The notes below the pieces were generated by a model. The model had not been told where the DNA came from. It saw nothing but the letters and a program-made list of their open reading frames with translations, and did not search any database. Source: Gnetum montanum (lineage: Eukaryota; Plantae; Gnetophyta). Taken from it: a stretch of 64,000 nucleotides of DNA. Both the position numbers and the translations under genes were made by a program. Within the stretch, counting starts at the first letter, position 1. Each line of letters opens with the position of its first letter. The stretch covers positions 737,318 through 801,317 of the forward strand of contig MNCI01001941.1 of the NCBI GenBank assembly GCA_015680685.1. The letters are read 5' to 3'. This document shows, piece by piece, positions 240 to 40,000 of this stretch.

Positions 240-2969
240 GATGGGTCCTATGATATCTAGCCCCCATCATTGGAATGGCCATGTAATTTTTGTAGGATGC
301 AACTCAGTAGGTGAAACATGTATAATATTTTCATGACATTGGAATTTATCACACATCTTATCTTTGGCAAGGCAATCTCGTTCCATGCAAGGCCAGTANA
401 ACATTGGAATTTATCAGACATCTTATCTTTGGCAAGGCAATCTCGTTCCATGCAAGGCCAGTAATATCCTAGGCATATGATTTTTGCTGCCATAGACCTG
501 GGAGCTATGTGTCCTCCACATAGTCCTTCATGGACTTCATTAACGATTTTTTATGCTTCTTCCCCACTAATATAAATTAGCAATATCCCATCAAAGGAGC
601 ATTTGTATAAGGTATTATCTCCTATAAGGACATACTGTCAGGCTCGCTTTTAGATCACATCCTTTTGAGTGAATGTCAAGCCCTGTGGGGGTTCACCATG
701 TTGAAGGTAGGCTTTAACATTAGCATACCACTCTTGGGAATTAGTAGCACTTACGGAGGTGACATGTACCGCTTGAGTGATATGGTTTGTGCACTTCGTT
801 ATCGAAGCAGGTAAATTTGTGAATAGGCATGGCAACATGTTAAATGCTAGCATGGCTAAGGCATCCACTATAGTGTTCTTGTTGCATGGCACATGTTGGA
901 TGTCTACCATTGTAAACTATTTCAGTAGACTCTTGGCCAAGTCACAATAAGGCTATAAATGTGAAGCTTTACAGGCATAGATTTCAGTAATCTAGTTGAC
1001 GATGAGCTGGGAATTGCCTCGGACTGCCAAATGTTGGATCTTTAATTCCTAGGCTGCTAAAAGGCCCCTAAGGATTCCTTCGTACTCAACTATGTTGTTT
1101 GTACAAAGGAACATAAAACAGTAAGTGAAAGGTTGAATGTCCCCTGAGGGGAATGTAATGATAGCAGCAACACTACCACCTTGTGTGGTTGAGGTGCCAT
1201 TGAAATGCAAAGTATCTTTGAAGTGTAATGGTATAGGGTTGATGCTATTAACATGTTCGATGGGGAATTCTAGCTCTATGGTTACTTGATCATCGATGGG
1301 TGAGGTTGTGAGCTATGTAGCCATCGCTTGTCCTTTTGTTGATGATTGGGCTACATAGTGTAAATTGAATTATGCCATTATAGCTTTCCATCGAGCTATC
1401 TTTCTGCTTTTGTATAAATTGTTCATGATAGCCCAAAGTACATTGCTCTTGCATATAATGTTAACCTTACTACGGAATAGGTAATGTATCCACTTTTTTA
1501 GCATAAATACTAGGGCAACACAATTTCTTTCTACTTCATTGTACTCCACCTCATAATCTATCAGTGTATGGCTCAAGTAATAAACTGGGATTTCAAAGCC
1601 ATCATCTCTCTTCTGACACAACAATGCTTCGATAGATGTGTCCCAAGTGGCAAGGTAGATTTAGAAAGGCTTATCCCTCTGTGGTGGGTAAAAAATTGGG
1701 AGGTGAAAAAGCTCTATCTTTAAGTCATTGAAGGCTTGTTGACACTGTGCCATCCACTTGAAGTTAATCCCCTTCTTTAGCAAGTGTTGCATGGGGTGTA
1801 ACTTGTTAGTCAACTTTGTTACAAAGCTTATGATAAACTGTATTCTACCTTGCAATCTGCATAATTCTTTAACGTTGGTAAGGGATGCTAGGTTAACGAT
1901 GGCCTTAACTTTGTCAGGGTCCACTCATATTCCAGCTTTCGATACTACAAACCCTAGCATGCATTTGGTTTTAGCTCTGAAAACACATTTATTTGGATTG
2001 AGATGCAAGTCATGCCTGTGACAACGCTTGAGGACTACATCTAGATCAGTGGGATGATCAATAGCTCTCTTAGACTTGAATGCTATATCATCCACGTAAT
2101 CGTTTAGTCTCTCTAAGAGGTAGTCACTGAATATGGACATCATGGCTCATTGATAGGTTATTTCAACATTTTTGAGACCAAAGGACATCATAGTATAATA
2201 AAAGGTTTCCCAAGGGGTCATGAAAGTAGTTTTTAACTAATGCTCTAAATTGATGTGGATTTGATTGTAACCTGAGAACCCATCCATAAAGGACAATAAA
2301 GCATGACCAGCTGTAGTGTCAATAAGTTGCTGAATACTTGGTAATGGGAAGTCATCTTTAATCGTTGCTTTGTTTAAATCTTGAAAGTCTATAAAAATTC
2401 GTATACCTTCCATTTTCTTGGAGACTACAATGTTGTTCGATACCCACTTTGAGTAATTGACCATGTGGATGAAACCTGCTTGATATAGCTTGGTAATTTC
2501 ATTATGTACAGCTAGTGTAATTTTTGGTTTAATTTTTCAAGCCTTTTGATTAACTGCTTTGATACGTGGGTCTAAGACAATGTTATGTTGTATGAGCTGT
2601 AGGTCTAAGCCCAGCAGGTCATTATAGGACCACATGAACACTTTAATGTTGTTTTGGAGAACCTTAGATACGTCCTTTTGTATTTGTGAATCTAGGAGGG
2701 AGCCAAGTTTTAATGTCTTTATTTCCCTCTAGATGTAGTTACAGGTGCTTCGATGAGAGGGTCCTCGATCACATCCCTGGCCTCTAAGTCTAAGGCTTGG
2801 ACCAAATGTTTGGGCCAATCTAGGGATGTTTCCAGGGATACTACAGTGTTGTCAATAGATGATTTCCAGTCTATTGATTCTAAGTTTAGGTGTCTTGTAA
2901 GCTTGCCATGAGGACCCGTCAAGGTTAAAAGTGAATGCAGATCATCTTGCATAGCCATTTTTATCAAAC
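240..2969 (-). pseudogene. Degenerate pol of element A: RT (~1660-2700), RNase H (~1320-1660), additional archaeal-type RNase H (~850-1220), integrase N-terminus (240-~750)
   Basis: RT: IDFQDLNKATIKDDFPLP, SFMDGFSGYNQI, YVDDI. RH: PVYYLSHTL..YNEVERNCVAL. aRH: TNNIVEYEG..GNSQLIVN..NTIVDALA. INT: HEGLCGGH, GYYWPCMERDC, WGLDIIGP. Many stops and frameshifts. Confidence 0.95.
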
Positions 2970-3100
2970 CTATCATAATAAGAAAAAGCCAGGTCAAGTG
3001 ATACTTGTTTGTAGCAACAACATGTAATGAATTTTTGTAAAGTAACAATACAACATAAAATAATCATCAATCGCTGTGTAAAATTTGCAACTCAAAGCTA

Positions 3101-3524
3101 CTAGTTTAAGGTCTTAGTGGACTGTATTGAGACTTGAAATGAATGCTAACATTGCCAGTTTAAGGTTGTAGCAAATCATAACATATTATATAATTTGGTT
3201 TATGATATGGAATGAGTGGTGAGATGCCATATAGGACATGGCAGATTGTTGATATAGTTAAAGCATATGCTAGAATTGCTAATTTAAGGTCTTTGCAGAC
3301 TGCTACTAGGTAGAGTTGAAAGTTAAAACTGCTAGTTTAAGGTCTTTTATGAACCATTAACAACTAGATTTTAAAAGCTAAGATTTGCTAGTTTAAGGTC
3401 TTTGCAAACCATCATGAGGCTACATTGTAGGTTAACGTCCTATGTAAACCAAGATTTCCAGTTTAAGGTCTTAGCAAATCATTAATAGGTAGACTTTGTA
3501 AAGATAGATGGCTAATTTAAGATG
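3101..3524. repeat. Array of 7 copies of motif CTAGTTTAAGGTC
   Basis: Copies start at ~3101, 3155, 3279, 3332, 3388, 3458 and 3512. Confidence 0.85.
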
Positions 3525-3667
3525 GAACAAAATTTTTGGTGGGCCCACTTGTTATTCTGTAGACAATCGCTACGCTAAGGTGTTACTATGACAAAATAGT
3601 GCTACGCTACAAGGGGTATCCCACATTAATTAGGTCATGAAAATGGCAAGTATTTTATTGTTTTGGC

Positions 3668-3675
3668 TATAAATA
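3668..3675 (+). promoter_or_regulatory. Putative TATA box of the antisense gene of element A
   Basis: ggcTATAAATAggg, 143 nt upstream of the inferred ATG at 3811. Confidence 0.6.
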
Positions 3676-3810
3676 GGGGTTTATCCCTAGGTAAACTTGT
3701 CATTTTCATTGTCAAAGCCCAACACCCATACTCAGGGCGTAGCATGATTGCACAGAGAGAGAGCGAACTGGTGTAGCATAGCAATTGACAGGGAATTAGC
3801 AAGCGAGATA

Positions 3811-6800
3811 ATGGCATCCAAAGGTGAACACTAGCACTGAGGACTTGCTAAAGTAGATAAGGTGAAGGACACTCTGGGGCGCTTATCCAAGGCATGCGTT
3901 GAAGTGTAGGAGGAGGCTCTGTCTACTCGGTAAGTTGCTACGTTGCCCTTGTTTTCCAGATGGTGTTATCGTTATTGTGGTAAAATTTGTGTCCACTACC
4001 ACTATTTTGGTTACTGTATTGGCCGCCATGCTGTTATTGTCACTGGTTGATGTATGGATGCTATGCTATGGTTGCATGCAACATCGCCTTAACCACCATT
4101 GTTGAGAATGGTGACTACCTTGTAGTAAGATTTTGGGCAATTCTGAGTGGCATAGTGCATGCTTGACGCAACGTACCATCTTTATGAAGGGTTTAGTTAT
4201 TCGTAAAATTTTTTAGGGTGATATGTGCTTAATCGTAGCATAGCGTGAGCTATTTCGTACAGTAAGATAGGGTTGAGATGATAGGGACATTGAATTTTCT
4301 CTCATCTGTGCTACTTCAAGGCTATAATTTTTTTTTCTTTTTACTGTTACACTTGCTACGTTGCTATGCCTGTTATAGGGGTATGTTTGTCATATTGTCA
4401 TACATCTGCCTATGCTTGTTCATTCACTATCTTGCTACGTTGTGCGTATCATAGTCATCACCCTTAAGCATACATGTAATCGTTATATTGCACACCTGTT
4501 ATGTTGTGGTGTGTGTCATGTAACAATTACTGTAAGGCAAAAACAGTGTTGTTATGCAGTACTGTGCTTAATGGCTATGCTATGCTGTAAGTGCCACTTT
4601 ATAATATCACCTATAATTCTCGACTCTATTTTCTATTAAAGAAAAATTTGCGATCGAGAGAACATGCTACACTACATGCAAAGAAAGGTTATGCTATGCT
4701 ATATGTGAACAGATGATTACACTGTGCTATGTGTAAACTTCACTTGAACATAGTTTCAATGTTTGATGCTTTATTGTGTAGGGTCATGTTGAAGCTCATC
4801 TTGATTGTCCTTGAGATTGTAGGGGTCTTGTGCTTCCTTAGTGAATCGATGGCCAATGTTCCTCCTCCCCATGCATGTGTGGGGTGGCAAGCAGTCTTGT
4901 TCTAGGAGGGTGCACGAGACTTCTTACAATTCCTCCTCTACTATTTTAGTGTGATTGTTTAGTCACACTTATCAGTAGAGATAGTGGTTGCAATTACAAA
5001 AATACTATTTCCCGGGGCAAATTGGGGCATTCTGAAATTTTTGACTAATGGGTCAATTAGGGGTGAGTGAGAAGAAGGCTTCAACTAGTGCCCAAAAGGC
5101 TTGAGGTGCTTAAGTTGGATCTAGGACATGCCTAAGTATAAATGCTATAATTTATACAACACGTTATTCGTTGCCCATTACATGGGCACCTATTTTCAAA
5201 ACCCACCTAGGACCATTTATTATGCCAGTAGGTGAGTTCTATGAGTGTATCTCATCGTGTTGTGTAATCCATGTTACACTAGATAAGGGTGTTAATAGTA
5301 TATATATTTTTTGTATTACCAAGTTTTATGTTGACAGGAATGGTCTTCATGGTGATATAGATGCCTTGGCATTGGCATAGATGGCCTTGCAAGAGTTTTC
5401 CTCAACTGGGAATGTGTGCACCAACATAATAGGCCAATTTGGGGGTGAGTTTAAAACCTACCCAACCTGATATTTCCAATTTTATGAAAAGTGTAAAGAA
5501 GTTGGTTGGTTGGATAGGGAGTGGACATCCCTTAGGCCACTCATCGTTGAAGATGTGCTAGTGGATCTCCCACCATTTCCCATGCCATTTAAACCTAGTA
5601 CGCTAAACTATGAATTTTCTATTATATGTTCAAGAGATGATCAGCTTTTGCTAACTTTTTATTTTTTATTTCTTGAAAACTATTATAGTGGCTAGGAAAT
5701 CCCAAGAGGTCACTATGATCACCTCCATATGTAACAAAACTAACTTTTTTCTCAAGTACGAGGAGGTGGAGGAGACCCAGTGTTGGCTCTGCAATGGGGC
5801 CCCAACCATGCTTGTCCATAAACTTCAAGAGGCTAGACTCATGGACTTATTTTTGGCCATCAACCAAAGTATCCTACCTGTTGAAATACTTTCCCTAGCC
5901 AACTCCTTCTTCAAGAAGGTTGACCGCTTGTGTACATGCATTCACGGTGTACAGGTGGTGTTTGAAATCAACAACCAACTATTCACAAATCTTTTTAGTG
6001 TCCCTTCTAATGGTCTCCCTATAGGAGAATAATCTAAGAAAGATGCAAGCCATCAGGGTAACATTGAGGAGTGGCTAAGGGCGGTAAAGGATCAAAAGGG
6101 GATCTACATCAAGAAGGTCAGGCTAGGGGTGGCCAAAATGATTTACCCTATCTTCCATACCCATGCCTTCCCCAAGCTACTCTCTCAAGGAAAAGTCCTT
6201 GGAGTTGAATAGGCTTGGATAATGAGAGATTTCATGGAAGAGAGAGATCACTACAATTGGGCCAAATACCTTTGCAAAGGCTTGCAAGCTAAAATGGTCA
6301 AACTCCAGAGAAACTTGAGTCCCATTTCAACGTGCACCATGCCTTCTTTATAGCCTACCTGCGGTGTTTTGCAGAATGCTTGTTAGTCTATGAGAATGAT
6401 GTCTAGGTGCTACAGGACTATAGTTAGATTTCCAAACTATGGATTTGCCAAGTCTTTTCTACCACACGATCCCAAGATCTCCTTGAAGATATTAGGGAAT
6501 TATTTTTGATGATGACCAGGGATCGGGTGGCACATGCCTTTTGTGCCTAGGACAGCATGGGAGAGGCACCTCCCATTAACATAGGTAGTGTGATAAGGGG
6601 CGAATGCCTCATTGTAGAAAAAGTGGTGACTAGCTTGCAACATAAGAGGTCCCACCCTACCAAAGAGACTCCCCGTACAAATGAAGAGAGGGGGAAGAAG
6701 CTACAACTCAAACTTCGTAGAGTGCAACCTCTAATTGGTAAGTGTATTTTATTATTTGGCTAATGCTCATTACACTATGCTACGCTAGGTAGCATTGCAC

Positions 6801-7298
6801 AGCGTAGCATCTGTTTCAAGTTGGTATATCTTGCCTACTATAATTATGCTTTATTAGCAGAAGAAGAAGAAGAAGAAGGGGGGGAAGAGGTGATGGCCCC
6901 TAGAACAAGCACAATTGGTGAAGATGAAGAGGTTCTAGCCACAGAGGAAAGGGCCTTGACCAATGAAGAAGGGGCTCAAACCATAGAAGATAGGACCTCA
7001 GCTAGTGAGGAAGAGGCCCTTGTTGATGAAGAGGAAGCCTCAATTGACAAAGAAAGGGTCCCAGCCACTTAGGAAGATGTCCCTATCAATGAAGAAAGGG
7101 CCCTAGCCAATGAGGAAGAGGCCCCCACCAATCAAGAAGAGGCCCCTGCTGATGACCCTTTCGTCGAGTGTAGTTCAATACTGGAGGGGCATATGAATAT
7201 TGAGGATCCTACTATGTTATTAGATCAACTAGAAGGAGAGGGGCTCCATTTTGATGTTGGTGAGTTTGATCACTTGTTTGAAAGTGTATCGATGGGAG

Positions 7299-7358
<60 letters not shown>

Positions 7359-8651
7359 NAGGAGCTTTACACTATCATTTATGTTGTTCATTAGCTTTAT
7401 CATGGTTCTCTTTGCCATGGCTAACATGTTTTACCATGTAGCAGACACCACTGTTGATACATCTGACCCTTCTTTGATCCGCCTATGATCGTGGACCGAG
7501 ACCCCTGACAAATTCACTTTTATGGAGGGGGTGGTTGACGACATGATCGACTTTCTAAAGTAGATTGACCTGGAAGTGGATAAGTTAAAGTTTCTACACT
7601 AGGATTCCTATATTGTTACAATTTCTCTATGTCACTATGATTAATGCTCTTCTATGTGTGGTTGGCAACCTCTCACCTTAAGTGGGACCCCAAGCAAGTA
7701 ATTGAGGTCAACGCTATGCCCGAATTCCCATAGGAGGTAACTGAAGTACCTCGTAACATATATGATGAAGTAAGCAAATGTGCATTATACTCGGCATGCT
7801 CCCTGTGGGAATGCAGGCTTGTAAACGAAGACCTCTAGAAACGGGTGCAAAGGCTCGAGAAGGAGAAGGCTAATCTAACTACTAAGGTGGGGGATCTCTG
7901 ATCCAGGAACAAATTCCTGTTGGCTTGGGATACTAATGATGGTAGTTAGCACACGACCTTCATCAACTATGCAAGATATTGGATGGCCATACGATGCAAC
8001 AATGAATCCACACACGAAATAATCGAATATTACATGCAAATGGACCTTCTAGCTCAAAAGAACCAAGATTGGAAGGATTACAACGCGAAGGTTTATGAGT
8101 GGCGGTAGGCATAGTAGAATCACAAACACATGTATAAAATGGAACATGCCATCTACTATAAATAGTATCATGATGCTTCCATCAAGTTGCATACCTATGA
8201 GGTATTCCTTGATATTCTTGATGCTTCTAGGGCTTATGATAGGTTCATGCAATAGGTGATAGTTAGTGAATCTCCTGAAAGGGAGATGAGTTTTCCTATC
8301 GGTGAGACCACCATTGCCACCTTTTCTCCAGGACCATTAAGATGGACAGCCGTAGAAAAGGAGAAAGTTGCAGCAAACACTGATCTGGGAGATAGGAATT
8401 GGGTTGACATTAACGAGGAGGAGATCTTGCAATGCCTCGTGGCTAGTATGGATTGTATACCTCCCAAAGTGGACGCGGGGCCATCTTAGGTTAGTTACTT
8501 CTTTTTTCTTATTTATGGTGTGATAATTTATTTTATAAAAATATTTTTCGTAGCTCTAACTGATTGTTTTATTTTCTTTGTTATGTAGGATCCAAATGCA
8601 AATGTAGGACCCAATGAGGTAGGGGATGGTGGTGTAGGTGAATACTCATAG
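3811..8651 (+). pseudogene. Antisense 8-exon accessory gene of Tat element A (unknown protein; exon 4 resembles plant-mobile-domain / 'putative plant transposon protein' folds; acidic repeat exon; C-terminal coiled coil)
   Basis: Exons 3811-3929, 4782-5231, 5338-5597, 5689-6737, ~6858-~7300 (end lost at poly-C/N), ~7442-7579, 7669-8489, 8589-8651. GT-AG boundaries (two mutated) give in-frame joins, and the peptides align with the copy in element B. Confidence 0.85.
6925..7155 (+). repeat. 21-bp (7-aa) degenerate coding tandem repeat, acidic (EERALTN/EEEALVD/EEEAPTN...)
   Basis: About 10 heptads visible in ORF 6821-7072 and its continuation past a CAG>TAG stop. Confidence 0.8.
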
Positions 8652-8846
8652 CGTAGTGGTAGAGAGTTTTATTCTTGTCTTTGGATTCTCAAAAAAAATA
8701 AATTTGTAAACCTTATTGATTGATATTTTGAATGAAGGATGGAATATAAAAGGATTTATTTCATTTTGGTTAGTGTTTTGTATTTGTTTTTAGTCTATTC
8801 TTTGTCTTTTTTATTAATTAATTAAGCTCATTGAGAGCATCTCATT

Positions 8847-8966
8847 CTAGTTTTAGGCCATTTCGGGCTATCACTAGTTTTAGGCCATTTCGACCTGTTG
8901 GTAGTTTTAGGCCATTTTGGGTCGTCAAATGATGGTAAAGAAAAATTTTACTAGTTTTAGGCCTTA
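8847..8966. repeat. 27-bp-period array of motif CTAGTTTTAGGCC
   Basis: Copies at 8847, 8874, 8901 and 8951. Confidence 0.85.
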
Positions 8967-9149
8967 GCGGGTCTTTTTGTGATGTAAACAGTGGGTGTAA
9001 TGTGAACAATTTAAAAAATAAGGCAAATGTTAGCGTAAACAAAAAAATATGAAGCAAATAGTGTGAAGGATGAATGTATGGTTGATGTAAGTGGTGATCA
9101 TGTTGGAAGTAGTGTAGTAGTTATGCTAACGTAAGTAACAATCATTCTC

Positions 9150-12100
9150 GTAGCTGCTTCATAACCCATCATGGGCTCGATGATGCATAAGGCTGAGGGG
9201 CTTTGTTGCGATATTCTTCTATATCGCTATCTACCACTTGAAAAGGCAACTCGGTCCACATAGTTTGATTTTCTGAGTCGACATTTTGGGCTAGCACATT
9301 AGCCAAATAAGTAGCCTCAGTGGGGATAGGTGCTTCATTTTCAGAAGGTTATTACTTCTAAACCATGCTCCATCTCAACATTGTTTATTGCTTGGGTGGC
9401 CACTTTGTCACCATAGGTTACCACCTCCCTGCCCACGTAAGGTAGGTGGATCTCTTGATGTATGGATGAAGAGACAGCTTTGAGTTGGGCTAACCATGAC
9501 CTCCCTAAGATCAGGTTAAACCCAGGCATCTCTTCAACCATGATGAATGTCGTGCTTGTGGGGAACTGGTCCCCTGACACAGTTGTTGTGGACAACCCCC
9601 TTTACCACTACCTATGACATGAGGTTGTTGTGGGTTTGATTTAATCAACCAAGCCTATTTTTTCCACTATGGGGAATGAGATGACATTTTTAGTAGCCCC
9701 TTCATCAACGTGTACTCTTTGGATCTTGTGCTCATCAACCCAAATTGTGATGAACAGGGGTACTATTGTCACCCGACCCTTTTCAGGGTCATCCTTGATG
9801 GACTCATCATGGAATGTCAACTAAGTTAGCCATGGTTCTTCAAGCATAGAAGGAAGCATAACCGCATGGATTGCTTTCTTCTCCACCTACATGTTTTCAT
9901 CAATCGGTATCAACATTAACATGTGAACCAAGGCCTCGCATTGTGCAATGGAGGTCATTACCAAGTCATACAAGCTTAAGGTTGTATTCTTTTATTTTAG
10001 AGCCTGTTTGACTTGAGTAAGGGAATTTAGAAGGTCTTGTCCATTTTCTTGTTGTTTGCTACCCTTCTCTTCCTCTATTTATCCTAGGAGATGAATCTCT
10101 CATGGAGGAGAAGTTTCAAGTTTGGGGCTAGACCTTCTTGGGTTGGATGGTGATGATTGTGTGTGCATAGTGCTGTCAATTGTTGATGATGAAGGGGACA
10201 TAGGCATGGAGGAAAAGGGGCTAGGATTGGAGGGACCTAATGCTATACGTTCCTTGGCCATCTTGTCCATTATACACTCTTCCCCTTTTTTTGAACAAGG
10301 AGGCTATGGGGGTGTTTTAGATTTGCTCTGTGTGGCGAGGATAGTTGATGGTTTCGGCCCCCTAATGACAAATGGTGTTTGTGGTGTTACCATGGGTGAC
10401 GACGTAGTTTTAAACATGAAGGGTGAAAGGGCAAATGTTTGAGGGGGAACCTTGAGGATGAAGGGTTGTTGTGGCATCCTTTTTGCTATTGTTGATGCCT
10501 CTATGCTACATTGAGACACATGAATCACAAATGACTACTGTGGTGGTTTTGGATTACTGTCGATGTCAATTGTGTTGATAACATACCTTGCATTGTTGGT
10601 GTTCAGGGGGTCCTTGTAGACATGCATGGATTGATTTTCAGGGCATACAGGGTTACTTTCATCTAGAACCAACTTCCCCTGATCAATCATCCATTGGATG
10701 TCATCTTTTAATGCTAGACAGTAATCTATGTCGTGACCACAAAGTTGATGGTAGTCACAGAACCGTTCCAGCCGAAAGTTCTTAGGAACTGGCGGCTCAT
10801 TGGGCATAGCCAAGGAGGGGTTTCTAAGAAGTTTGCAATACCATTGATGCCATTTGATCACCTCCTCCAACATCTTCTTATGTTGAATATACCCAGCCCC
10901 CAAAAATTACTTCAAAATTTCTGAAGGCTTGACACATAGAGGGGTGTATTTGGAGAGGTCTTTATACTCAAAGTTGGGCTTAGGTTGGGTTGATGCCTCT
11001 GGTGCTAACGTTGAGGGTTGAGCAGCATTATTTAAGCTAGGCATGGGGTTAGTTGATGTTGTGGCTTCTTTTTTGTTGTTGTTGTTGTCGGGTTTGGCCT
11101 TGTTTGCCACGACGACCACCTTGGCTATCGTAGCCTTGCCCTTCTCTTTGTCCTTTTTGACATATGCATTTTTGTACGCAACATAGGTCGAGTCTTTACT
11201 AGCTTCGGCTATGTCTTGGATGATCTTCATTTGGGTGAAAGCTGAGAGAGCATGGGGCTAGGTAGTATAGTTTTAACTTAATAAAGTCATTTACTACCCC
11301 CTTGAAGATAGCCAACAGATGGGCCTCCACGATAGGCTCACCGATCTCATTCAGGGTAGCGCTCCACTGTTGTATAAAATTTTGCACTAACTCCAATGGG
11401 TCTTTCTTGACACTTATCAACTAATCTAGTGTGACCTTTGGCTTTAAATTATACTTGAAGTGGGTCACAAACTAAGTCAGTAGCTCCTCTAGAGTTGAGA
11501 TGAAGATGCATGGGAGTGCACGGTACCAATCTAAAGCTTTGCCTATTAGAGACATAGCAAAGACATGAATAATAGTTTGTAGCCACTACTGCAACAACAA
11601 AGATTCGGATCTAAACATGACTAGATGTGCATTGGGATCACTCTCCCTATTGTATTTTGTGAGTTGGGGGAGTGGCATCCCAGGGGGTAACATGAGCATG
11701 GGAACAAATGGGCTGATGGAGTCGTCATGGTAGAAATCCATGACCTGCACTGTGTTGGATCCAATAAATTTGAGATGTTTAATCTCTTCAGTGAGGGTCT
11801 AGATAAGTTGGAATGCTTGGTCCAAACCTGGGGATGATGTAGATGGTTGTGGGGTTGTAGGGGCAACCATTGTTGATGACATTGTAAGGGTAGTAGCCTG
11901 GCTCATAGGGGGTACCGTTGGGGCTGCTCCTACGAAGGGTGTTGCCTATGCAGTCCACCACCCAGTGGGTGGTGCTATTGAAGCGGTGGCGTCTAGGGGT
12001 GTTGTAGGGTTAGTCACTTGCGTGACTGATGGGGTGGACCACAGTCACATGCTTGGTTGTACCGTTTGTGAGACATGGTATGCTTGGTGGTAAACATAGT

Positions 12101-12930
12101 GTGACATTTGGGAGGATTGTGAAACAAGAAGAGAAGTGGTCGAGGCACACCATGCAGTTGGGGGCAGGGCTGCCATAATGGTAGGGTAGGCATGAACAAT
12201 GGAATGGGAGTAGGAACTCCTTGTAGCTGTGAGGTAGGCACAATGTGCACATACGGCAATGTAGCTGTGACCAGCATTTGGTACGATGACAAGATAGAGT
12301 GAGGAGGGAGAGTGCCTGGGAATGAAACTAAAGGGATAGTATGTTGGTACGCTAAGGGTACAGGATGGCTACCGATGGCTAATGAAAGTGTAGAGTTGCA
12401 GCAGAGTCATGGTAATCATAAAAGAGGTAGATGTAAAACGAGGGTTTGACTGGAAGACCACAGTGGGAGGGATAGTCGTAGGGTAAGTCTAGCCACCATC
12501 CTTGGATTGGGAGTCCAGGTCTTCTTGTCCATCCTAGAATACTTCATCATAATGGGATGCCATGTCCTGCTATTCCCTAGACCTAATCATTTGTATGAGT
12601 TGGTTCAGGACCCATTGATATGATTCGGTTAATGAGATAATGATATCAAGGGTGGGGATAAATTTCCTCTTGTTCCAATGAAGGAACTTGAAGTTATGTT
12701 TGTCTTTGAGTTCTTAGTGATCTAAGGGTAGATTTTCCTAGATCTTTACACAAAGGAAGTCATAATGCTCTGTGTCTTGCACTAATAATTTAGGTAATAG
12801 ATGTCAGATCCTAAGAGACTGGCATGGTGCCAGCACTGGGCTTGGTGGTCACTCGATACCTATGATGCTTTGAGTCAAGAAAGGAACCTCAAGGTTGGAT
12901 GTGGGAACTACGGTTGTTGGCGGAATCATT
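9150..12930 (-). pseudogene. Degenerate gag-protease of element A
   Basis: Gag core (AMSLIGKALDWYRAL, ESVQNFIQ-like ELVQNFIQQW), Tat-type knuckle FCDYHQLCGHDIDYCLALK, protease VHVDEGATKNVI...FNLILGRSWL..VSSSIHQ. Start position uncertain. Confidence 0.88.
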
Positions 12931-13012: not shown

Positions 13013-13021
13013 AGGAATGGT

Positions 13022-14996
13022 TGTCGTGACCAGTCTACACCACACGATGCGTAAACAACTACGAGGGTATCATGTTTACGCTAGTGGGTGACAGGGTACA
13101 GAAAGCATGTAGGACTACCCAAAGGACATAGAAAGGGCACCGAAAAGGCCCTCCTTCTAGAGCCAAAAACTATTATGACTGAAAATGTTAGTGGCTGGAA
13201 CACCAAGAGGTTTTTGGGTGAACAGTTTAACCCTGGATTTGTGTGAGGACCATGTTAGAGAGAAACGGAAGTGGGGTGCCCTAAACGGTCTGGTTGATTA
13301 GATAGGGACTTAATCATTGTGTCTTAACCTTTCGTAAATGCTTGTTTCATAAGTGAGGCACGTGAAGTAAATTGATAATCAATAAGTGTAAAGTGGTAAA
13401 AATAGTGTGAAACAACGTTGATAGTAAGCAAATAGAAAAACAGACTTGGGTGAGAAAGTGCACCATCCCAAGGTCGTGGGTCTAATCCTTTGCTTTGTTG
13501 AAAGGTGTACAATAGAACACGCAACATGGAAGAGGCACAACTTACACAAAGTAGCATGGTCATAAATCTCTAAATTGTAGAGCCAACCAGCAAACTCAAA
13601 GCCAACTAGAGTGCTAAAAATTGTAGACTATGCTCTCCGAAAGCCAACTTAAAAGCCAATCACCACCCTAGGCTGACCCTTCAAGCATTGTTTGCTGGGG
13701 GTATTTATAGGCCTAGGAGTAGGAGAAAAATGTGTTCTGGATGCCATGTGTCTTGGGCCCCACAAGGTGCAAACATGGCTATACTATGTAGGTGTGTGAT
13801 GCTAGAGGTGAGCTTTGTTATGCTATGACCATACTACTAAAACTTCATGTGCCAAAATCTAGTGTGCTAACAATGCAAGAAAAATGGAGCCTATGCTCCA
13901 AGACTACGTCTTCCTTAATCTTGCAAGTAGGGTCAAGCGTAGGAACAATTTTTGGGGATTGACCAAGGGTATGCAAAATGAAGAAAACTTGCTGATTTTG
14001 TCTGGCAAAGAGATATCAGGATGAGAATAATCATTGCCAAAAAGTTATAGAGCTAACCGAAGACGTCTTGATGCCTCCATGCTAGTGTTGCACTACCCAT
14101 GTTGTTCAGCACATTGGCGTAGCATAAGTAACTGCTCGCTATGCTGTGCTATGGTACGTAGCATAGCATAGTGTAGCCACCGGTCTTGACAAAAACCTTA
14201 CGTAGGAGCTGAGAGCATTTGTGTGAGGATTGGTCAGGCAAAAAACTGAAACTTTTGTCCTCCATGCCAAAAAGCCTTCAAACTTACTAAATTCATCTTT
14301 GAAACATTTCTACCATTTTTGCATCATTGCTACGTTGTGCTACACTATGTAGCATAGCACAACGTAGTAGCCAATGTATCATGCTTCCTTATTCAATCTG
14401 CCATTTTCTACCAAGAAACCTTGCTTGAGGCCTGAGGACTAAGTGGGATAATCAGTTTTGGAGGCTAAAGCATTGCCAAATGCAATCTTCTTGTTGGAGT
14501 CACTTGGCAAAGGGGGGCCTTTTTGTGCTTTGTCCCTATTACACTTTACTACGCTACATAGTGCAACATAGCATAACACCTTGTGTTGGTGGAGCAAGTT
14601 TGCTTGACGGTTGCAACATGGGCAAATGCTTTGGAAGACCAACTTGTCATCAACTTACATCTTGGATGCTTGATTGATCTCTTCAAGGCTTGCTATGTAG
14701 CGCAGCGTAGTATATTTCTATGCTAGAAAACTTGCTGAACTATTTTTCTCATCCCGAACACTTTCAAAAAGTCCTAGCATGGTCCATGGGTAGACTGCCA
14801 GCTAGGTCAATTGTCTGGTTGGGTAGGCTGGAGAGTCTAGCAGACCTGTCAACCTTGGAGATAGAAAACTTGCTAGACTATATAGTCTATCCTTGGTGCC
14901 TACACCATTCTGTTGGCCCATCAACTTGTAGAAATCCTTGCCAAAATTCCAAGACTCTATTGAAGCATGAGGGTCCTAAAATTTTATGGTGTTTCA
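13022..14996 (-). repeat. 5' LTR of element A (~1.97 kb)
   Basis: Plus-strand termini TGTCGTGACC...aaaattttatggtgtttCA match element B termini TGTTGTGACC...aaaattttgttgtgtttCA. Minus-strand TATA (tatttatag at ~13702). Confidence 0.8.
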
Positions 14997-24607: not shown

Positions 24608-24608
24608 A

Positions 24609-28947: not shown

Positions 28948-30415
28948 TGTTGTGACCAAAAATCTCATTTGTTGGAAGAAAACCAAGGATCCTTGGTGTA
29001 AGGAATTCTTCAAATCAAAATCCCTAGGACCTCCATGAGAGAAATGGGATTCAAGGCACCCTGTCTAGTCTGGTAGATCAACCAAGGACTTATGAGATGC
29101 AAAATGTAGGAGTATAAATAGATCCAAAAAGTGCATAGAAAAAAATTTAATTTTAACACAAACCTCAAAACTTAAAAATTTATTGAGAAAGAATAAAGAA
29201 TAAGTTAGAGAAATGTGTACAAATGGTGCTTGGATGACCAGATAGGGGGTTCACTTATGCAAGAGTTCAAATCCCATTGAAGTTGATGTGATTTTCTCCA
29301 TGATCTAGGTGTTAAGCCACTCTTGATGCTATCGAACCTTTCTTCACTAATACAACCTTAGATCTATAAGTTGGGTCACTTCTAGGACATGAGAAAGGTG
29401 GAAAATTTGGATGCCAAATTGCTCCATGCTAGGGTTTGAAAATCCCATAGGTGTGACATTGACATAAAAAATACACAAATCTCAAGGCCATAATGCTTCC
29501 ATGTTAAGGTTCAAGAGAATGCATGTATGGGAACTTTCAAGAGCTCTTGAGTGCTTGAAAATGCCCTAAGTGTAGAATTGTAAAATTAGCTAAACTTTTT
29601 TGAAAAATTATTGGAACCAAATTTTCTTTTATGCCCAAAAGTTGTTGAACCTTGTCAAAAATTTCTAAACAAATTCTAAAACCTCTAAATGATGTTTGAG
29701 GTTATCTTTTATAGGATGTTTGGGCCATGAATGGGGCTGTAAATTGGTTGTGAAATGGCTACAAATTTACTGTAATTTTAGGTGAGATGGATATCCAAAT
29801 TTAGGGGTTACCATACATAGTAAGTTCTTTTCCCCATGGTCATTCCATTTACTATAAATATTAACTAGGGCACACCTATCACACTAGAGATGAATCTTCC
29901 ATGCTATGTTCTTCACCATGCTTATTGAAGTGGTTGGTCAATGCTGAAGTGCATCAAGTGATGAATTTTTGCTTTTGTGGCTTCCATACTAGGGGGATTG
30001 AGTTTTCCATATTGGGAATGAAGACTCCACAGAGGGGGGAAACTTTCACATTTAGGGGGGAAACTTTCTAGGATAAGGAAAAAATTCCATGCTGGGTAAA
30101 AAACTTCTAGGCTAGGGAAAAAGTTTCTAGGCTATGCATGTGGTCTCCATGGTGAAGGGGAAAAGTTTCCAAAACCCCCACCCTTCCATGCTATGGGTAG
30201 TTGAGATCTAGCCCCCTACATGTGTTTCTAGCATAGAAAAATGTATACCCCCCATATAACCCATCAAATTATTCTTTTTCTCATTTNAAAGTATGTGAAA
30301 TTTCCCTTTATGGGTTACAATTTTCACATTTATATGAAGTTTTGCTTTGGGTTTCATGGGGTGAAAGTTACATGATGAAGATTGGTTATAACATGAAAAA
30401 TTTTGTTGTGTTTCA
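28948..30415 (-). repeat. 3' LTR of element B (~1.47 kb; N at 30287), PPT at ~30418-30429
   Basis: TGTTGTGACC...gtgtttCA followed by atggtccctctttg (minus strand CAAAGAGGGACC). Confidence 0.8.
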
Positions 30416-30651
30416 ATGGTCCCTCTTTGTTGATGCCAAGAGGCACTAATAAAGAATAGAAAACACTATAGCATATTATACTAGTAAAATGCATATAGGC
30501 CACATGAAAATTAGGCTCTCCAAGTTACCAAGGTTGGTTTTTTAAGGCCATGGTGGACCATGGTCTTAGTTTAAGGCCCTGTCAAGTCATGTTGCTAGTT
30601 TAAGGTCGTAGCAAACTATTGAAAGTAGGATTTCTTGATGATGATTATTGG

Positions 30652-33600
30652 CTACATGTAGTATGGCTTTAGATAGGAATGATTGACCAGATTGGCCAAC
30701 CAATTTCCATCCATGTTAACTATTTTGAATGCTCTATTCCCATAGGCTCTAGTGATAAGGAAGGGCCCTTCCTAGTTTGCTAAGAATTTTTTGGCATGCT
30801 AACAGATGACCTTCAGGAGTAGGTCCCCCTCCTTGATCTTGTGCATGGTCAAGTCAGGTTGATGTTGTCACTTCTATCTCTCTTGATAATGCTTGATGTG
30901 ATCAAGCACTTGCATACACCACTCCTCCACTGAATCTAGGGCTATTGTCTTCAACTCCTTGTTCTACTCATTGTTGATGAAGTTGATCAAGGCTACTCGA
31001 AGCAATGGCACCTACAATTTAAGAGGTAAAATAACTTCAAAACCATAAACAAGGCTATAAGTGGTCATGCTAGTTGTCATGTGATAAGTTATTCTATATG
31101 CCCATAGTGCATGGACAAGCCACTCATGCCACTTCTATTTGCTATTGTTGAGCATCTTCTTGAACAAGTTGATGGTGGCATTGTTGTTTACTTTTGCTTG
31201 CCCATTAGCTTAAGGGTAGTAAGGTGACAAGAAAGAATGCTTAATGTCTAGGTTGTGACAAAAATACTTGGTTTCTTGGCTACTAAATTGAGGTCCATTA
31301 TCCATAACTATGGTCATGGGTATGCTAAAATGGGAACAATGTCATCTAGGATAAATTTGCAAACTTTTTCAGATGTGGTCTTCCTTAGGGGAATAGCCTC
31401 AATCCACTTGGTAAAGTATTAAGTTGTGGTGATGATGAAGCTATGTCCTATGGAAGACTTATGCATTATGGGTCCAATGATATCAAACCCTCATTGTTGA
31501 AATGGCCATATTATCTAGGTCTTATGTAACTCAGTTGGTGATACATGTATTATATTTCTATATCATTGGCATGTGTCACATTGCTTAATATTTTGCAGGT
31601 AGTCATGCTCCATATGGGGCCAATAGTAGCCTAACTATCTAATCTTATTAGCCATGGCTCTAGGTCCTATATGTCTTCCACAAAAACCCTCATGAACCTC
31701 CTCTAGGACTATTCTAGATTCAATTTTACCTAAGTACTTTTGGAGCATTCCATCATAGGAGCATTAACATAATGTGTTATCACCTACAATGACATATTGC
31801 TTTGATTGCTTATGTATGGCATCCTTTTGAGTAGTAGTCATGCCATGTGAGGATTCACCATGTGTAAGGTAAAATTTGATATCATCATACCACTCCTTGA
31901 TAGGAGTAGTATGAATGATGGCCACAAAGGTATCCTCAATGTCCTATGTGATAGCAATAGCATAGTCCATAGTTAAGATGGGCAACTTGCTAAACACATT
32001 TGGCATCACACTAAGGGCTAGTATTGTAATTTCATTAGCTATGGAATTTTCATTTCTACGTATGTATTGGACATCAACATCTATGAATTGTTGTAATAAC
32101 TACTTCCATAGGTCATAGTAAGCTTGTAAGTGCGTAGCTTTGAATGCATATACTTCAATTACTTGGTTAATCATGAGTTGTGAATTGCCTTTGATGACTG
32201 GGCATCTAATTCCTATGTCATGAGCTACCATGTTCCTCTAATCAAACCCTCATGTTTTGCTATGTTGTTCATACATGGGAACTCAAAAAATAGGCAAAGG
32301 GTTGGATCTCACTAGATGGGAATGTCATAATGGCAGCAACATTAGCCTCATGGGTAGTTGAAGCTCCATCAAAGTTCATGACTGCCTCATAACCCTTGAG
32401 CACTTGGCTAACTGAGTTAATGTATTCATTAAGAAACTTAGGATCTATGATTTCTTGGTCATCAACAGGTGAAACTATTGGGATATACAACTACTTTCGT
32501 AGATGTTGGTCATTATGGCTCTGAGTATGTTGTCCTTGTAAATTACGTTGACTTGGCTTCTAAAGAGGTAGTGTCTCCATTTCTTCAAAGAGAATACTAG
32601 TGCTAAACAATGCTTCTCTGCTTCATTGTATTGAGTCTCGTGGGCAACTAATGCATGGCTAAGGTAGTATACAAGCATTTTTGCATCATCATCACATTTT
32701 TGATAGACTAGAGTGGCAATGGATGTATCACAGATGATGAGATAAACATAAAATGGTTTACCCTCTTGTGGAGAATAGACTATCAGTAGTTGTGTGAACT
32801 CTTGCTTAAGGTTTTCAAAGGCCTCTTGGCATTGAGCTGTTCACTCATAGTGAATTCCATTCTTAAGCAAGTGTTGCATGGACTATAAATTATCCATAAA
32901 CCTAAAAATAAACTATAACCTACCTTGTAATCCCCAAAGCTCTTTATGGTTGGTACGTACTGCCAATTTAGATATGGCCTTAACCTAACCAGGATGTATG
33001 TGTATTCCTACTTCAAAGACTACAAAGCTAAGCATATTACTGGTCTTGACTCTAAAGACATACTTCTTAGGATTAAGCCTAAGATCATATTTGAGACATC
33101 ATTTAAGCACAAGATCTAGGTCATTAGCATGCTCATTGGCTATTTGAAACTTCATGGCTATGTTATCTACGTAATCATTAAGAAAACCTAACATGTAATC
33201 ACTGAAGATATAGGTCATGGCTCTTTGGAATGTTTCTCTAGCATTTTAAAGGTTAAAGGGCATTATAGTATAATAAAAAGAACCCCATGGGATCATAAAG
33301 GTCATGCTAAGTTGGTGCTTTGGGTTTATCCTAATTTGATTATATCCTAAGAATCCATCCATAAAGGACAGTAAGACATGTCCAACTATAATATCAATGA
33401 GTTGATCAATACTAGATAAAGGGAAGTCATCCTTGATAGTTTCTTTATTTAGGTCTCAAAAATTAATTCAAATATAGATACTCCTATTTTTCTTAGGGAC
33501 TACCACTATGTTGGCTACCCATCCTGCATAATCGATAACATTAATGAAACTTGCTTGGTAAAGATTTGAGATTTCATTGCAAACTACCAAGGCCAAATCA

Positions 33601-34080
33601 AGTCTAATCTTGTGAAATTTTTGCTTAACTAGTTTAATGGTACGGTCTAGTATGATGTTTTGTTGGACTCGATGTGGATTTAGGCCTAGCATATCTTCAT
33701 ATGACTAGGAAAATGCCTTAATGTTTTTTTTGTAAGATCTTGATGATATCTTGGGTACATTGAGGCTCTAGTGAGGAACTTAGTTTAAGGGTTTTCTCCT
33801 CACCACTATGTGTTGTGATAGGAATCTAAACTAGAGGGTCTTCACTTATGTCTCCCATTTCTAAGTTAAGAGTTTTGACTAGGTTTTCAGGCCATTCTAG
33901 AGGTTTCTCTATTAAGGCTATGTGGTCTACAAGAATCTAAGGCTTAAGATCTAGGCAATCAAGGTAGATACACCATTTAACAAAAATGTGAGATCCATGT
34001 AGACACAAAGGCAAATTAATTTACTGCTAGGTACTCATACTTTGATCTTGCATGTTAACCAAGGGCATATTAAGTGGCAC
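30652..34080 (-). pseudogene. Degenerate pol of element B (RT-RH-aRH-INT)
   Basis: WVANIVVVPKKN, SFMDGFLGYNQI, VYYLSHALVAHETQYNEAEKHCLAL, aRH MNFDGAST, integrase core, and C-terminal LKPYYM*. Confidence 0.95.
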
Positions 34081-34399
34081 CTAGGTAAACTGAATAAATA
34101 ATATTAAAATTCCATAAAACATATGCAACTCTAATGCAATCAAAACCATCCAAAGTCATCAGGGAGATAACGTTAATTTGGAAAAGTGTAATAGAGGTGA
34201 ATAATAGATCACATAAAGGTGAAAAAAGGGAAATTATAAAGCTAAAAATGGTCAATAAGGCCATAATTTTGCCAATTTTAGACCTTCATGGGCCATGATG
34301 CTAGTTTATAGTCTTCATGGACTATGATTGTAGTTTAAGGCCTTAATAGCCCATGGTCATATGGTGTCAAATGGTGGTTAGAGAAGGTAAAACCCCACT

Positions 34400-37076: not shown

Positions 37077-40000
37077 ATGGAATCCAAGAAACAAGGGGAA
37101 AAGAGAAAAATTCCTATAATATAGAGGATGGATGAACATTCTTGGAAGTTAGAAGAAGTTCCCAAGTCCATCTGCATTCAAGCTTCTTCTATTACTGCTC
37201 CAAGGTAGGTATTTCTACCTATTTTTTCCTTTCTTCTAAGGATTTTAAAGTTTTATTTTTCATGTGTTAGGGTTGTTTTGTCCAAATCTTCTCTAGTGGA
37301 GGGATTAAAATGAAATTTTAATGAAATCCCACCTTCTATTTTGGCCATTTCCACATGGATCCATAGTCTTTTTTTTGTTTTAACTTTTATAGATTTGGTT
37401 TTAAAAATATGACTTTCTATTTCATGCCTCTTTCCCAAAATTCTAGGGTATGGCTATTTTTTCAGATCTAGCCCTAAGGATTTGTTAAAATTAAATTTTA
37501 ACAAAATCCTACCCCATTATTTTGGTGTGAATTTTAATGGGTTTCAATGGTCTTGGTTATTTTGACTATTTTAATGATGATATGAAATTAAGGCTTTGAG
37601 GTTTTTTGAGGTTTTAGCATGAAAAGATAAGAAATGTTTTGTATTTATTTTCTTGGTAAAATAACTAAAAATCTACAATATTGAAGGTTAAAAATTTGTA
37701 ACCCTTCATTAAAGCTTTCTAATGGCTATTGTCTTGTTTAATTTGACCTTGAAACAAAGAAGATATGGCTATTTTCCTAACATTACACAGTTAGGTTGTT
37801 TGTGCCACCTTTGTAATTTTATGTAGCTTTGCAAATTTGTTTTGAAATAAATGACAAAGGTTTTGGGTATTTTCTAAACATTACTACATAGGTGTTACCT
37901 TTAGCTTTCCACTGGAGGTCGAATCACTTCAATTTGATTTAAAATGGATTTTTATAAATATTTTACTAATAATGTGTAATAAGGATGTTTATGCCATTTG
38001 CAAATTATTGTCCAAATTGACAACTTTTTCTTGCATAAATGGAAAAGGTTTTAAATTGTTTCTAACCATGGATATGTAGGACTTGACTTAAGCTTTCAAA
38101 AGGTGGTGGAATCACTCCATTTGGAGCTCAAACAAATTTTTTTTATGAATTTTTTGCTATGGTTGTGTGAATTAAGGCAAAACTCATTATTGTAGTACAT
38201 TATCCATTTGAAAATAAAAGTGGTTGATATGTATCACTTATGTTTTTCTTTTGTGAACATGTAAATCTTAATTTTACTTTTAAAAGATATTTTCTATTTT
38301 AAATAAGCTTTTTCTATGGCTACATGGCCTTTTCTAAGTTTATTGTGCTTTTTCTAAATTTGTGCATAATTTAAGATGATTTTTCCAAATTTATGCATGT
38401 TTTGCATAATTTAGATGCTTTTCAAAATTTATGCATGCTTTCCATAATTTAGATTTCTTTTCTAAACTTATTCTTTCTTTTCTAAATTTATGCATAATTT
38501 AGATTCTATTTTCTAAATTTATGCATAATTTAGGCTAAGACTTAGTTTTAGCTCTAATGTTTTGGCTATAAAAGCTATAGAATATGGTAACAATGCTTTT
38601 ATGGAATTTCTTAACCTAATTTAGATAAAAATCTAAGAGCTTTTTATTTAGGCTAATTTCATCTCTGACTTAGGAAGTTTTTGCTAAATTTGTTAAGAAA
38701 TTCCAATTGGTTATGATGTAAGGTAATGCAAGTTTGTAATAATGTTTTCTTATGAAATTACTTAGATTAATTTAGAACAACACATTAAATCATTTTATAG
38801 AGGCTAATTTCACCTTTGACTAGATGTTTTATCTAAATTTTCCAAGTAACTCAAATAGGTCATAATGTTTTTTGTGCTTTATTTTATGTAGGGTCTTCTT
38901 GAGGCCTATCCTAATCATAGTGGAGCTAGTTGGTATTTTGTGCTATATTGATCATCCTAAGATGAACACACTACCACATGACATGCCTTTCAAGAAGCTC
39001 TCATTGTGGTTTTGGCCTAGGCAAGGAACTTCCTTACCTACCTCCTTGGGAACTTCAATGTGATGCCATAGTCACACTTATTCATGGATGCAGCTAGAGT
39101 TTTTGTGGAGACCTTGTTGCCTTGGGCATCTAGCCTAATTACTAGACATATTACTAAAAAACCACTTTCTAAGACTGCAGGGGGACCAACATATGTCATA
39201 AGTCCACATTACCTTTCAAAGATCTAGATAATGCTAGATTATAGTCAATATAATACTAACAATACTCTGATTGTGGTGCATATAGCCCACACATTATTCT
39301 AGAACCCTCCAAGCACCATATACCATCTATAGGGGTAAACATGGTTATTGTAATGCTTTTATGCTTTTGGCTCAATTACCTAACCTAACTTCATTAATTT
39401 AACTTGCAAGTACAAGACCAATGATTAGGGCTTAATCATAAATGATCAAATCCTGACAATGGCTCAAACTACTTTGGATGAATTCACTAAGAGTTCCCAA
39501 ATCAGAGCTACTATGTATCAATAGTTAAAAGGAAACCTTGATGAATATGCCACTAGGTTTAACCTCATATACAAAAGGTGCAAGGATGATGGGACAATGC
39601 ACAGCTAGTGGGTAGATGTCAATAGTATAGATCGGACCCTTGCTAAAACCTCCATAATATAGAAGAAGAGTAAAGGTAAACATATAGCTTCTAGTATTTT
39701 ATGGCTCTAAGTGCTTCATTGATTTTCTTGGTTGTCGAAATTGCTCATATTGATGCTAACCTTTGGTTAGTGCTTCGTAGGACCTTCCACCTCAGCTGAT
39801 GTTACTATACCACTTTCATGTTCATTTCATGAGGATACCCTCATCTTGAAGTTTGGTGATGTGATATTAACATAGGAGTGCTAAAGGGGTAGTCACTTGG
39901 ATATGTTCAAGTGAGCATCCAACATGAAGGTTTACTCAGTGTATTCATGCAACATATTCTTTCCATTCCTACTATAGAGATGTTACATGTCGTCGACTCC

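Follow-up and report, generated by a model that had tools for sequence, protein, structure and literature searches.

A short tandem repeat unit shared by two decayed Tat-lineage retrotransposons at the ends of their gag-pol reading frames

Antisense extra genes and tandem arrays are already common in Tat, Ogre and Retand elements, and a 2025 survey gives the function and origin of these arrays as unknown (PMC11963269). Ogre, an angiosperm Tat element, has a published intron between protease and reverse transcriptase (RT) (PMC6317226, PMC4408406); as far as the consulted parts of these accounts go, its spacer averages 274 bp, an extra ORF lies 5' of gag in sense orientation, a non-coding region parts gag-protease from RT, the domains follow the order RT, RNase H (RH), archaeal-type RNase H (aRH), then integrase (INT), and the 3' UTR carries internal tandem arrays (PMC6317226, PMC7004042). 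The two elements analysed here resemble Ogre in domain order, spacer and arrays, but one has a spacer of more than 6 kb, within which lies a multi-exon antisense gene, and a single unit recurs at either end of the spacer as well as in the 3' UTR. Retand and Tat III-V elements likewise combine an antisense accessory gene with arrays of tandem repeats inside a long internal region, but there the cassette follows pol and precedes the 3' LTR, its product is TRP28 or a plant mobile domain (PMD), and in Retand each family has arrays of its own (PMC11963269, PMC4408406). Outside retrotransposons, the Mutator-like VANDAL DNA transposons pair a multi-exon accessory gene, VANC, with short tandem non-coding motifs. 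In the available part of PMC5735166 each family has its own motifs, found in introns as well as in intergenic and terminal regions; the unit described here is common to both families and occurs at gag-pol joints only. Arrays that are family-specific, as is usual, offer nothing testable; conservation between divergent families, at three defined joints, makes this unit a concrete target of 25 nt.

Two decayed elements and their antisense gene

The 64-kb window, by which we mean the whole stretch of DNA analysed, contains two dead, decayed and only distantly related Tat-lineage Ty3/gypsy elements, A and B, which probably belong to a gymnosperm Tat lineage (Table 1). The pol region of A, broken near 240 by another insertion and interrupted by numerous stops, encodes RT, RH, aRH and the start of integrase. 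The aRH, a Tat clade trait, is detected (RVT_3, E=7.6e-14) between RT_RNaseH and Integrase_H2C2, the order of the Ogre subclade and not that of TatII (aRH before RT) or TatIII (aRH after INT). Best matches to the RT have the same RT-RH-aRH domains, with E down to 1e-141, and the nearest RT proteins found are those of Cryptomeria, at 53% identity, and of Ginkgo, at 49%. A quick midpoint-rooted RT tree, built from sequences without labelled Ogre, Retand or TatII/III references, placed A and B in a clade of their own (support 100) outside the angiosperm clades and grouped it with Cryptomeria and Ginkgo sequences at weak support (88, 67). The primer-binding site of A is one that we take to be of the tRNA-Arg type of Tat elements. 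Gymnosperm Tat groups J, of cupressophytes and Ginkgo, and K, with 'retroviral' domain order, also carry aRH between RH and INT, although the available text of PMC13468544 classifies them by aRH position only; its main text contains none of the words 'antisense', 'eORF' and 'spacer'.

Table 1. Coordinates of features in the window. Copies of the repeat are spelled CTAGTTT... on the + strand; genomic RNA corresponds to the - strand.
Feature	Position	Strand	Basis or remark
Element A pol	240..2968	-	Pfam RVT_1, RT_RNaseH, RVT_3, Integrase_H2C2 in that order
A protease-RT spacer, 6.2 kb	2969..9130	-	candidate Ogre-type intron, putatively spliced
Array A1, 7 units	3101..3536	-	starts 3101, 3155, 3279, 3332, 3388, 3458, 3512
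A antisense multi-exon accessory gene, broken	3668..8650	+	same-strand tblastx matches to B 38881-42098
Array A2, 4 units	8847..8975	-	starts 8847, 8874, 8901, 8951
A gag-protease region, broken	9121..12900	-	start approximate; gag read from translation only
A primer-binding site	13149..13165	-	sequence
A 5' LTR	13171..14996	-	terminus common to B LTR; without the unit, with GTAGYRTAG motif
B 3' LTR	28948..30415	-	without the unit, with TAGYRTGGR motif
Array B3, 3 units	30537..30619	-	starts 30537, 30566, 30595
B pol, RT to integrase stop, broken	30652..34080	-	tblastx to A; rve match
Array B1, 3 units	34272..34354	-	starts 34272, 34301, 34330
B antisense multi-exon accessory gene, broken	37077..42150	+	homologous to A accessory gene

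Gag-protease and RT of A occupy separate frames, and the protease gives a weak Asp_protease match in Pfam (E=0.085). Candidate splice sites of the spacer are a GT at 9130, in a weak donor context (AC/GTTAGC), and an AG at 2969. Two raw RNA runs placed 376 and 147 reads, 331 and 130 of them below 90% identity; over 90% ran on into unlike sequence, and no joint across the spacer was among those listed, the reads being too few to show one. The leader of A measures ~250 nt and the 3' UTR of B ~235 nt, so short that the long pol-3' LTR region with an antisense TRP28 ORF typical of Retand is absent from B, and Transposase_28 had no match on the pieces scanned.

The extra gene is antisense and lies upstream of RT in both elements, in A between protease and RT, rather than in sense orientation 5' of gag as in the Ogre subclade, where it often encodes PMD. 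In A it shows a TATA box at 3668, an ATG at 3811 and donor-like sites near 3930, 5232, 6738 and 8490. The A and B proteins are 28% identical over 160 aa. Searches with the accessory protein returned 0 Pfam matches, 0 matches among 1.84 billion representatives, and nothing in two word-index searches, in PDB sequences or, as a profile, against two other extra ORFs in the window; an AlphaFold model of the decayed query from two rows reached a pLDDT of 41, and Foldseek gave no fold match. With this decayed query, neither Pfam nor homologue nor fold search linked the protein to PMD or DUF1985.

A repeat unit at gag-pol frame ends

The window holds 17 copies of the repeat in four clusters, every copy on the + strand, in agreement with the numbers (7, 4, 3 and 3), places and single orientation reported in the initial annotation. 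The arrays are real and non-random: exact matches to CTAGTTTWAGGYC number 7 against 0.02 expected (largest shuffle 1), and all 12 matches with 0-1 mismatch fall inside arrays. At up to two mismatches there are 24 matches (5.75 +/- 2.26 expected), 14 within arrays and 10 scattered over both strands (6 on +, 4 on -). Three of the 17 copies (3512, 30537, 34272) carry three mismatches and were accepted by spacing and second half-site.

The 13-nt motif of the initial annotation is a genuine core, but the unit is longer, ~25-27 nt, in which the core YAGTTTWAGGYC and a second half-site form the dyad GGYC-N6-GRCC. The second half-site begins 17 nt past the core start in 11 of the 17 copies, against a background frequency of 0.0027 in the window. 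A1 is of the GGTC...GACC type and spaced by 53-124 nt (multiples of ~55), A2 is of the GGCC...GGCC type with a period of 27 nt, and both B arrays have a period of 29 nt; short head-to-tail units in variable number, as seen here, are a trait of the arrays in internal non-coding regions of Tat elements. Unlike the family-specific units reported for Retand, this one is common to A and B, and it is so, as had been claimed, despite differing non-coding DNA, the LTRs and spacers of the two sharing only 10-38-nt patches by blastn. CTAG was also considered as a decayed CCGG and rejected as the main form, position 3 being A in 16/17 copies; no variant at >=6% is listed at 8874-8877 in four runs, where seeding may bias the result. 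Decay does occur at the CG of the second half (C>T 15%, G>A 21% in contig set X1).

The arrays keep to where gag-pol reading frames end rather than to the limits of the antisense gene. From the candidate 3' splice site the array before RT is 132 nt away in A and 192 nt in B; measured to the antisense ATG, the distance is 287 nt in A and ~2,735 nt in B. A2 lies 167 nt from the candidate 5' splice site; described earlier as just after protease, it is ~150 nt beyond the gag-protease frame end and ~650 nt beyond the weak Pfam protease match. B3 starts ~35 nt past the B integrase stop, inside the short 3' UTR. The proposal that arrays mark both cassette borders thus holds for A but not for B, where the array is 2.7 kb off and no core was found in the 3,851 nt following the cassette. 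Both LTRs, the A leader, A antisense intron 1 and both pol regions contain 0 cores. This full-length reading comes from two elements, with the 3' UTR of A and the protease side of B outside the window. Other copies, ~85% identical, agree in position, with contigs bridging array to TATA region (3383-3714) and array to protease end (8941-9224).

Matches to the dimer pattern elsewhere comprise 3 metagenome loci, rejected as relatives since they had no blastn or tblastx match to the window, and 12 viral loci, treated as look-alikes because the unit context, judged as printed, differs. Among the literature matches listed for the 13-mer, only two unrelated rat papers appeared.

Readings of the unit

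We favour, tentatively and at somewhat less than even confidence, the reading that the unit is an RNA signal, a weak hairpin and a tail, handling the long intron-containing genomic RNA. The initial annotation had proposed such a cis-signal; an RNA-level role is favoured by the anchoring at gag-pol frame ends, the single orientation, the absence from LTRs and the dyad, while no specific RNA step is singled out. All four arrays share one orientation, whereas a second motif (below) occurs in both, though tandem arrays also retain orientation by descent. In the RNA, GGYC-N6-GRCC of each unit would make a weak hairpin of 4 bp, with UWAAACUAG after it as a single-stranded tail.

Evidence for pairing is mixed. 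Of the dyad cells, 79% (- strand) and 84% (+ strand) pair; since pairing occurs on both strands, a DNA palindrome would account for the dyad just as well. Looking for covariation, as had been suggested, we found the dyad score reached by 1/500 and 0/500 shuffles; the third pair is T-A in 9/9 T copies and C-G in 5/8 C copies, but 7 of the 9 T-A copies come from one array, so that the signal rests on few events. Within-array permutation gave p=0.22, Fisher's test p=0.067 with A1 removed, and two other column pairs exceed the dyad pair in mutual information. RNAalifold predicted no pair, and whole-array folding z-scores were weak (0.13 to -2.5). As a sign of constraint, A and B have an identity of 0.42-0.49 over positions 14-25, the tail that took no part in selecting copies, compared with 0.22-0.30 further out; in the core it is 0.73-0.79 against 0.66 for RT DNA, although the core served to select copies and, having no CG or CHG sites, would decay slowly anyway.

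Under the RNA-signal reading the protease-RT spacer would be an Ogre-type intron enlarged to >6 kb by the antisense gene, and because it would be a swollen intron, unspliced RNA would meet an early stop and the 12 AATAAA sites that the spacer contains. Units may serve as loading sites on genomic RNA for a host hnRNP-like protein, Gag or the accessory protein; bound there, it would adjust splicing at the two ends of the intron and protect the RNA downstream of the two stop codons. The cassette may have inserted into a short intron and split one array, a history suggested by the non-array intron ends of A, whose total of 299 nt is not far from the mean Ogre spacer of 274 nt. Rous sarcoma virus has direct repeats around src and an RNA stability element after a stop codon that serves unspliced RNA. 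Its same-orientation repeats flanking a captured gene and its element past the stop codon are alike by analogy only, with no sequence relation.

An unlikely alternative is that the arrays are functionless, hypervariable internal tandem repeats of the Tat/Ogre kind: template switching would have carried one ancestral unit to several non-coding joints, conversion would have kept its copies alike, and the spacer-flanking arrays would be scars of cassette insertion. Short internal non-coding arrays are common in Tat and are thought, in the consulted parts of PMC7004042 and PMC11963269, to arise by abnormal strand transfer. Unit number differs among copies, contig joints skipping 147-262 nt within A1, and contig depth at the two-unit junction in X1 is ~40-fold over the flanks (130,154 vs 3,124 and 2,770), as for a spreading minisatellite; the lack of CG and CHG in the core fits as well. 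Against neutrality, Retand arrays are family-specific in the available text of PMC11963269, whereas this unit is common to families with unalignable LTRs and spacers, and of the 55-nt period of A1 only the first 25 nt are kept. Even if neutral, the unit would trace the cassette's move into the protease-RT spacer. One contig of X1 and four of X5 join 3412 to 8847, with a short side of only 22 nt, and may represent a cassette-less copy or a mixed array.

Slightly less likely still is a double-stranded DNA site, the dyad with its flank, for the element's own antisense protein, in effect a VANC-like anti-silencing module in a retrotransposon. VANC targets are short tandem-repeated motifs in non-coding parts (consulted portion of PMC5735166) and VANC genes are multi-exon, as here; the unit offers two GGCC-type cores 10 bp apart; gymnosperm Tat III eORFs encode the plant mobile domain (in the part available of PMC4408406), which structurally resembles the DUF1985 of VANC (bioRxiv 2024.09.27.615353; PMC13547354). 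This accessory protein, however, shows no detected PMD/DUF1985 link, VANC motifs differ by family whereas the unit is shared at 28% protein identity, and the unit is missing from the LTRs and the first antisense intron of A. The earlier suggestion of DNA sites for the accessory protein is thereby weakened, the second motif fitting better, and kept as a rival. Very improbable is the reading as clustered sites for host transcription factors, with GGCC-type cores, that drive the antisense promoter or insulate it from the methylated pol region. In its favour, A1 ends 144 nt upstream of the A TATA box, and a host factor would account for conservation across families. Against it, 2.7 kb separate the B array from the antisense start, 2/4 arrays lie downstream of the cassette or after integrase, and the Arabidopsis MAIL1/MAIN 'DOWN' motif has only GTTT in common (ungapped, by eye; PMC7156037 table S7). 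Taken together, the two DNA-site readings are somewhat unlikely.

A second motif and the abundance of the unit

The second motif, with a TAGCRT core, occurs in LTRs and other non-coding parts in both orientations. The patterns, chosen after the sequence had been seen, are family-specific: 11/11 window matches to GTAGYRTAG lie in A and 14/16 to TAGYRTGGR in B. A family-specific motif across non-coding regions is the VANC-type trait, which this motif shows and the unit does not; the TAGCRT motif is thus the closer likeness to VANDAL-VANC and fits better as a VANC-like DNA target. Its presence in the same elements also offers a comparison by which to ask which sequence the accessory protein recognises. 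A two-tier cis-code around the intron-borne antisense gene of a gymnosperm Tat lineage is conceivable, though quite improbable as a whole: a lineage-wide RNA hairpin-and-tail signal at three gag-pol joints would route long unspliced RNA (Rev/RRE-like), and the accessory protein would read, in LTRs and introns, the TAGCRT-type DNA motif particular to each family, for VANC-like anti-silencing. If true, it would place such a system in a retrotransposon.

The unit seems to be very abundant in contigs under four organism labels, and through this abundance it may matter for how the elements filled a large genome.

Elements A and B in a nest of decayed retrotransposons

The window consists of decayed plant LTR retrotransposons nested in one another, and most of its length is strongly depleted in CG and CHG. 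By the sequence of their reverse transcriptase (RT), we assign elements A and B to the Tat clade. A quick tree was built from 107 rows, namely A, B and 105 of the 120 matches, 15 being omitted for short cover. There A and B form a clade of their own outside the angiosperm groups, placed at weak support beside proteins of Cryptomeria and Ginkgo. This placement suggests a gymnosperm host. Sections of PMC13468544 give the RH-aRH order as known for Tat clusters of cupressophytes, Ginkgo and gnetophytes. The pol of B is the same as that of A and is followed by a 235-nt 3' UTR; its gag-protease lies outside the window. An antisense accessory gene (the cassette) stands upstream of RT in both elements, in A between protease and RT. 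The two products share 28% identity over their best 160 aa, and no library searched gave a homologue or a family assignment.

Features of elements A and B and positions of the four repeat arrays
Feature	Position	Strand	Remarks
A 5' LTR	13171-14996	-	Element A
A primer-binding site	13149-13165	-	Element A
A gag-protease	ends ~9120	-	Followed by a 6.2-kb spacer
Array A2	8847-8975		Protease side of A
A antisense accessory gene	3811-8650 (3668-8650 counted from TATA)	+	Multi-exon; homologous to that of B
Array A1	3101-3536		RT side of A
A pol after spacer		-	Order RT, RNase H, archaeal-type RNase H, integrase start
B antisense accessory gene	37077-42150	+	Multi-exon; homologous to that of A
Array B1	34272-34354		RT side of B
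Array B3	30537-30619		After the integrase stop of B
B 3' LTR	28948-30415		Element B

Around and within these elements, the CG-rich end of a younger-looking insertion (1-240) breaks A's integrase, and a 65-bp near-exact duplication with an N (336-464) and a 58-nt C run beside an N (7300-7357) are possibly assembly artefacts. Degenerate 181-bp tandem repeats in B (34570-35830) lie between the array and the antisense gene and have no counterpart in A; past B's cassette lies a 1.65-kb tandem duplication (42379-45521, 67% identity) with degenerate 42-nt repeats. Another LTR element (15046-25523, 915-nt LTR matches at 84% identity) adjoins A's 5' LTR. A 5.3-kb tandem duplication (47155-56420, 85%) holds an element piece with a minus-strand extra ORF matching Transposase_32 weakly (E=0.035). 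The less decayed minus-strand element at 56421-64000 (CG observed/expected 0.3-0.5) has an apparent long 3' extra ORF in sense, a tested piece of which had no Pfam match.

The arrays and their anchoring

The arrays are real, and the unit is probably constrained. All 17 copies of the CTAGTTT(A/T)AGG(T/C)C core reported in the initial annotation were recovered at their positions, and the window holds 7 exact matches against 0.02 expected. Every match with at most one mismatch (12 of 12) falls inside the four arrays; with two mismatches allowed, 14 of 24 do. Trained on A's 11 copies, a matrix recovered 5 of the 6 B copies at an 11-bit threshold, along with 11 scattered matches (~7 in shuffles), and a 27-column matrix recovered all 6 with one stray match. 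Many arrays of a 14-nt unit resembling the core (TAAAGTTTTAGGYC type) occur in two large viral contigs (loci L004-L006, L010 and L013-L015), which we took as a chance look-alike.

Both arrays of A lie near a cassette end and a gag-pol end alike, so that A is uninformative on what anchors them and only B can separate the two. The candidate acceptor, a putative 3' splice site before RT, is 192 nt away from B's RT-side array (132 nt in A), but the antisense ATG is ~2.7 kb away (287 nt in A), with the 181-bp repeats intervening in B. The core is absent from the 3,851 nt past B's cassette, part of which may not be B's. Arrays at both cassette borders, as first proposed, are thus found in A but not in B, whereas the array placed after integrase in B was upheld, ~35 nt past the stop. 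Given these distances and the absence of the unit from both LTRs, A's leader, A's first antisense intron and pol, the unit marks the non-coding joints of gag-pol.

Length, symmetry and spread of the unit

Conservation continues past the 13-nt core through columns 14-25. In 11 of the 17 copies, a second half-site follows the start of the core by 17 nt, against a background frequency of 0.0027, and A-B identity in this tail, outside the copy selection, is 0.42-0.49 against 0.22-0.30 further out. Arrays repeat every 27 nt in A2, 29 nt in both B arrays and ~55 nt in A1, whose period is kept only in its first 25 nt. The GGYC at core positions 10-13 and the GRCC at positions 20-23 make up a dyad, separated by 6 nt and the same on either strand. 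Its third pair is T-A in 9/9 T copies and C-G in 5/8 C copies. The RNA covariation suggested earlier as a check gave a divided answer, exceeding column shuffles (reached by 1/500 and 0/500) but not within-array permutation (p=0.22), and RNAalifold predicted no pair. We treat the dyad as a lead for pairing, short of proof.

Contigs of two public DNA runs cover every bin of 2400-9600. In the public contigs of run X1, majority letters at 8893, 8894 and 8896 (58%, 70% and 53%) restore the second GGCC, and the CG next to it decays (15% and 21%). Other copies, ~85% identical, connect A1 with the TATA region and A2 with the end of protease, bearing out positional conservation. Unit number is variable, as contig joints inside A1 show. 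In all four runs, which carry four organism labels, depth at the two-unit junction far exceeds that on either side of it (X1: 130,154 versus ~3,000, summed contig depth not being copy number); evidently, the unit is present in many more places than family A's spacer.

Candidate roles of the unit and of a second motif

The unit is quite possibly an RNA signal, the reading that we favour. With arrays at both ends of the putative intron and past both stop codons, a single bound protein might tune splicing and shield the RNA; retroviral direct repeats and stability elements would be a parallel to this proposed role. On its genomic strand, A's spacer has the word AATAAA 12 times. Ogre elements, in the portions of PMC6317226 and PMC4408406 concerned, have an intron of ~274 nt between gag-protease and RT, spliced in a subset of transcripts, whereas A's protease-RT spacer exceeds 6 kb. 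That spacer measures 167 + 132 nt outside its arrays, which suggests a short intron whose single array was split by the cassette. Internal arrays of Tat elements, extra genes in antisense and the intron of Ogre are already known; a literature search, with several key papers outside its coverage, found no description of the unit or of a gene lying antisense between protease and RT.

Neutral hypervariable arrays, known from Tat 3' UTRs (parts of PMC7004042 and PMC11963269), are a less likely alternative. Somewhat less likely still is binding of the accessory protein to the unit as DNA. VANC, an anti-silencing protein of VANDAL transposons, has targets that, as far as the consulted text of PMC5735166 goes, are family-specific, free in orientation and spread through non-coding parts, terminal regions included; in contrast, the unit is common to A and B, has one orientation and is confined. 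Sites for a host factor are improbable.

An unbiased 7-mer count showed that the non-coding DNA of each element is enriched in further words. With patterns chosen after viewing the sequence, all 11 window matches of GTAGYRTAG fall in A (3610-14557; 6 on the + and 5 on the - strand), 9 of them non-coding, LTR, promoter and introns included, and 14 of 16 matches of TAGYRTGGR fall in B (29431-40177), 13 in LTR and spacer and on both strands. The two patterns have a TAGCRT core in common. Like VANC targets, this second motif is family-specific, occurs in both orientations and includes the LTRs, and by that analogy it would be a better candidate DNA target of the accessory protein than the unit. 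A 38-nt inverted match (87%) between an intron of A's antisense gene (6771-6808) and A's LTR (14138-14175) consists of the second motif.
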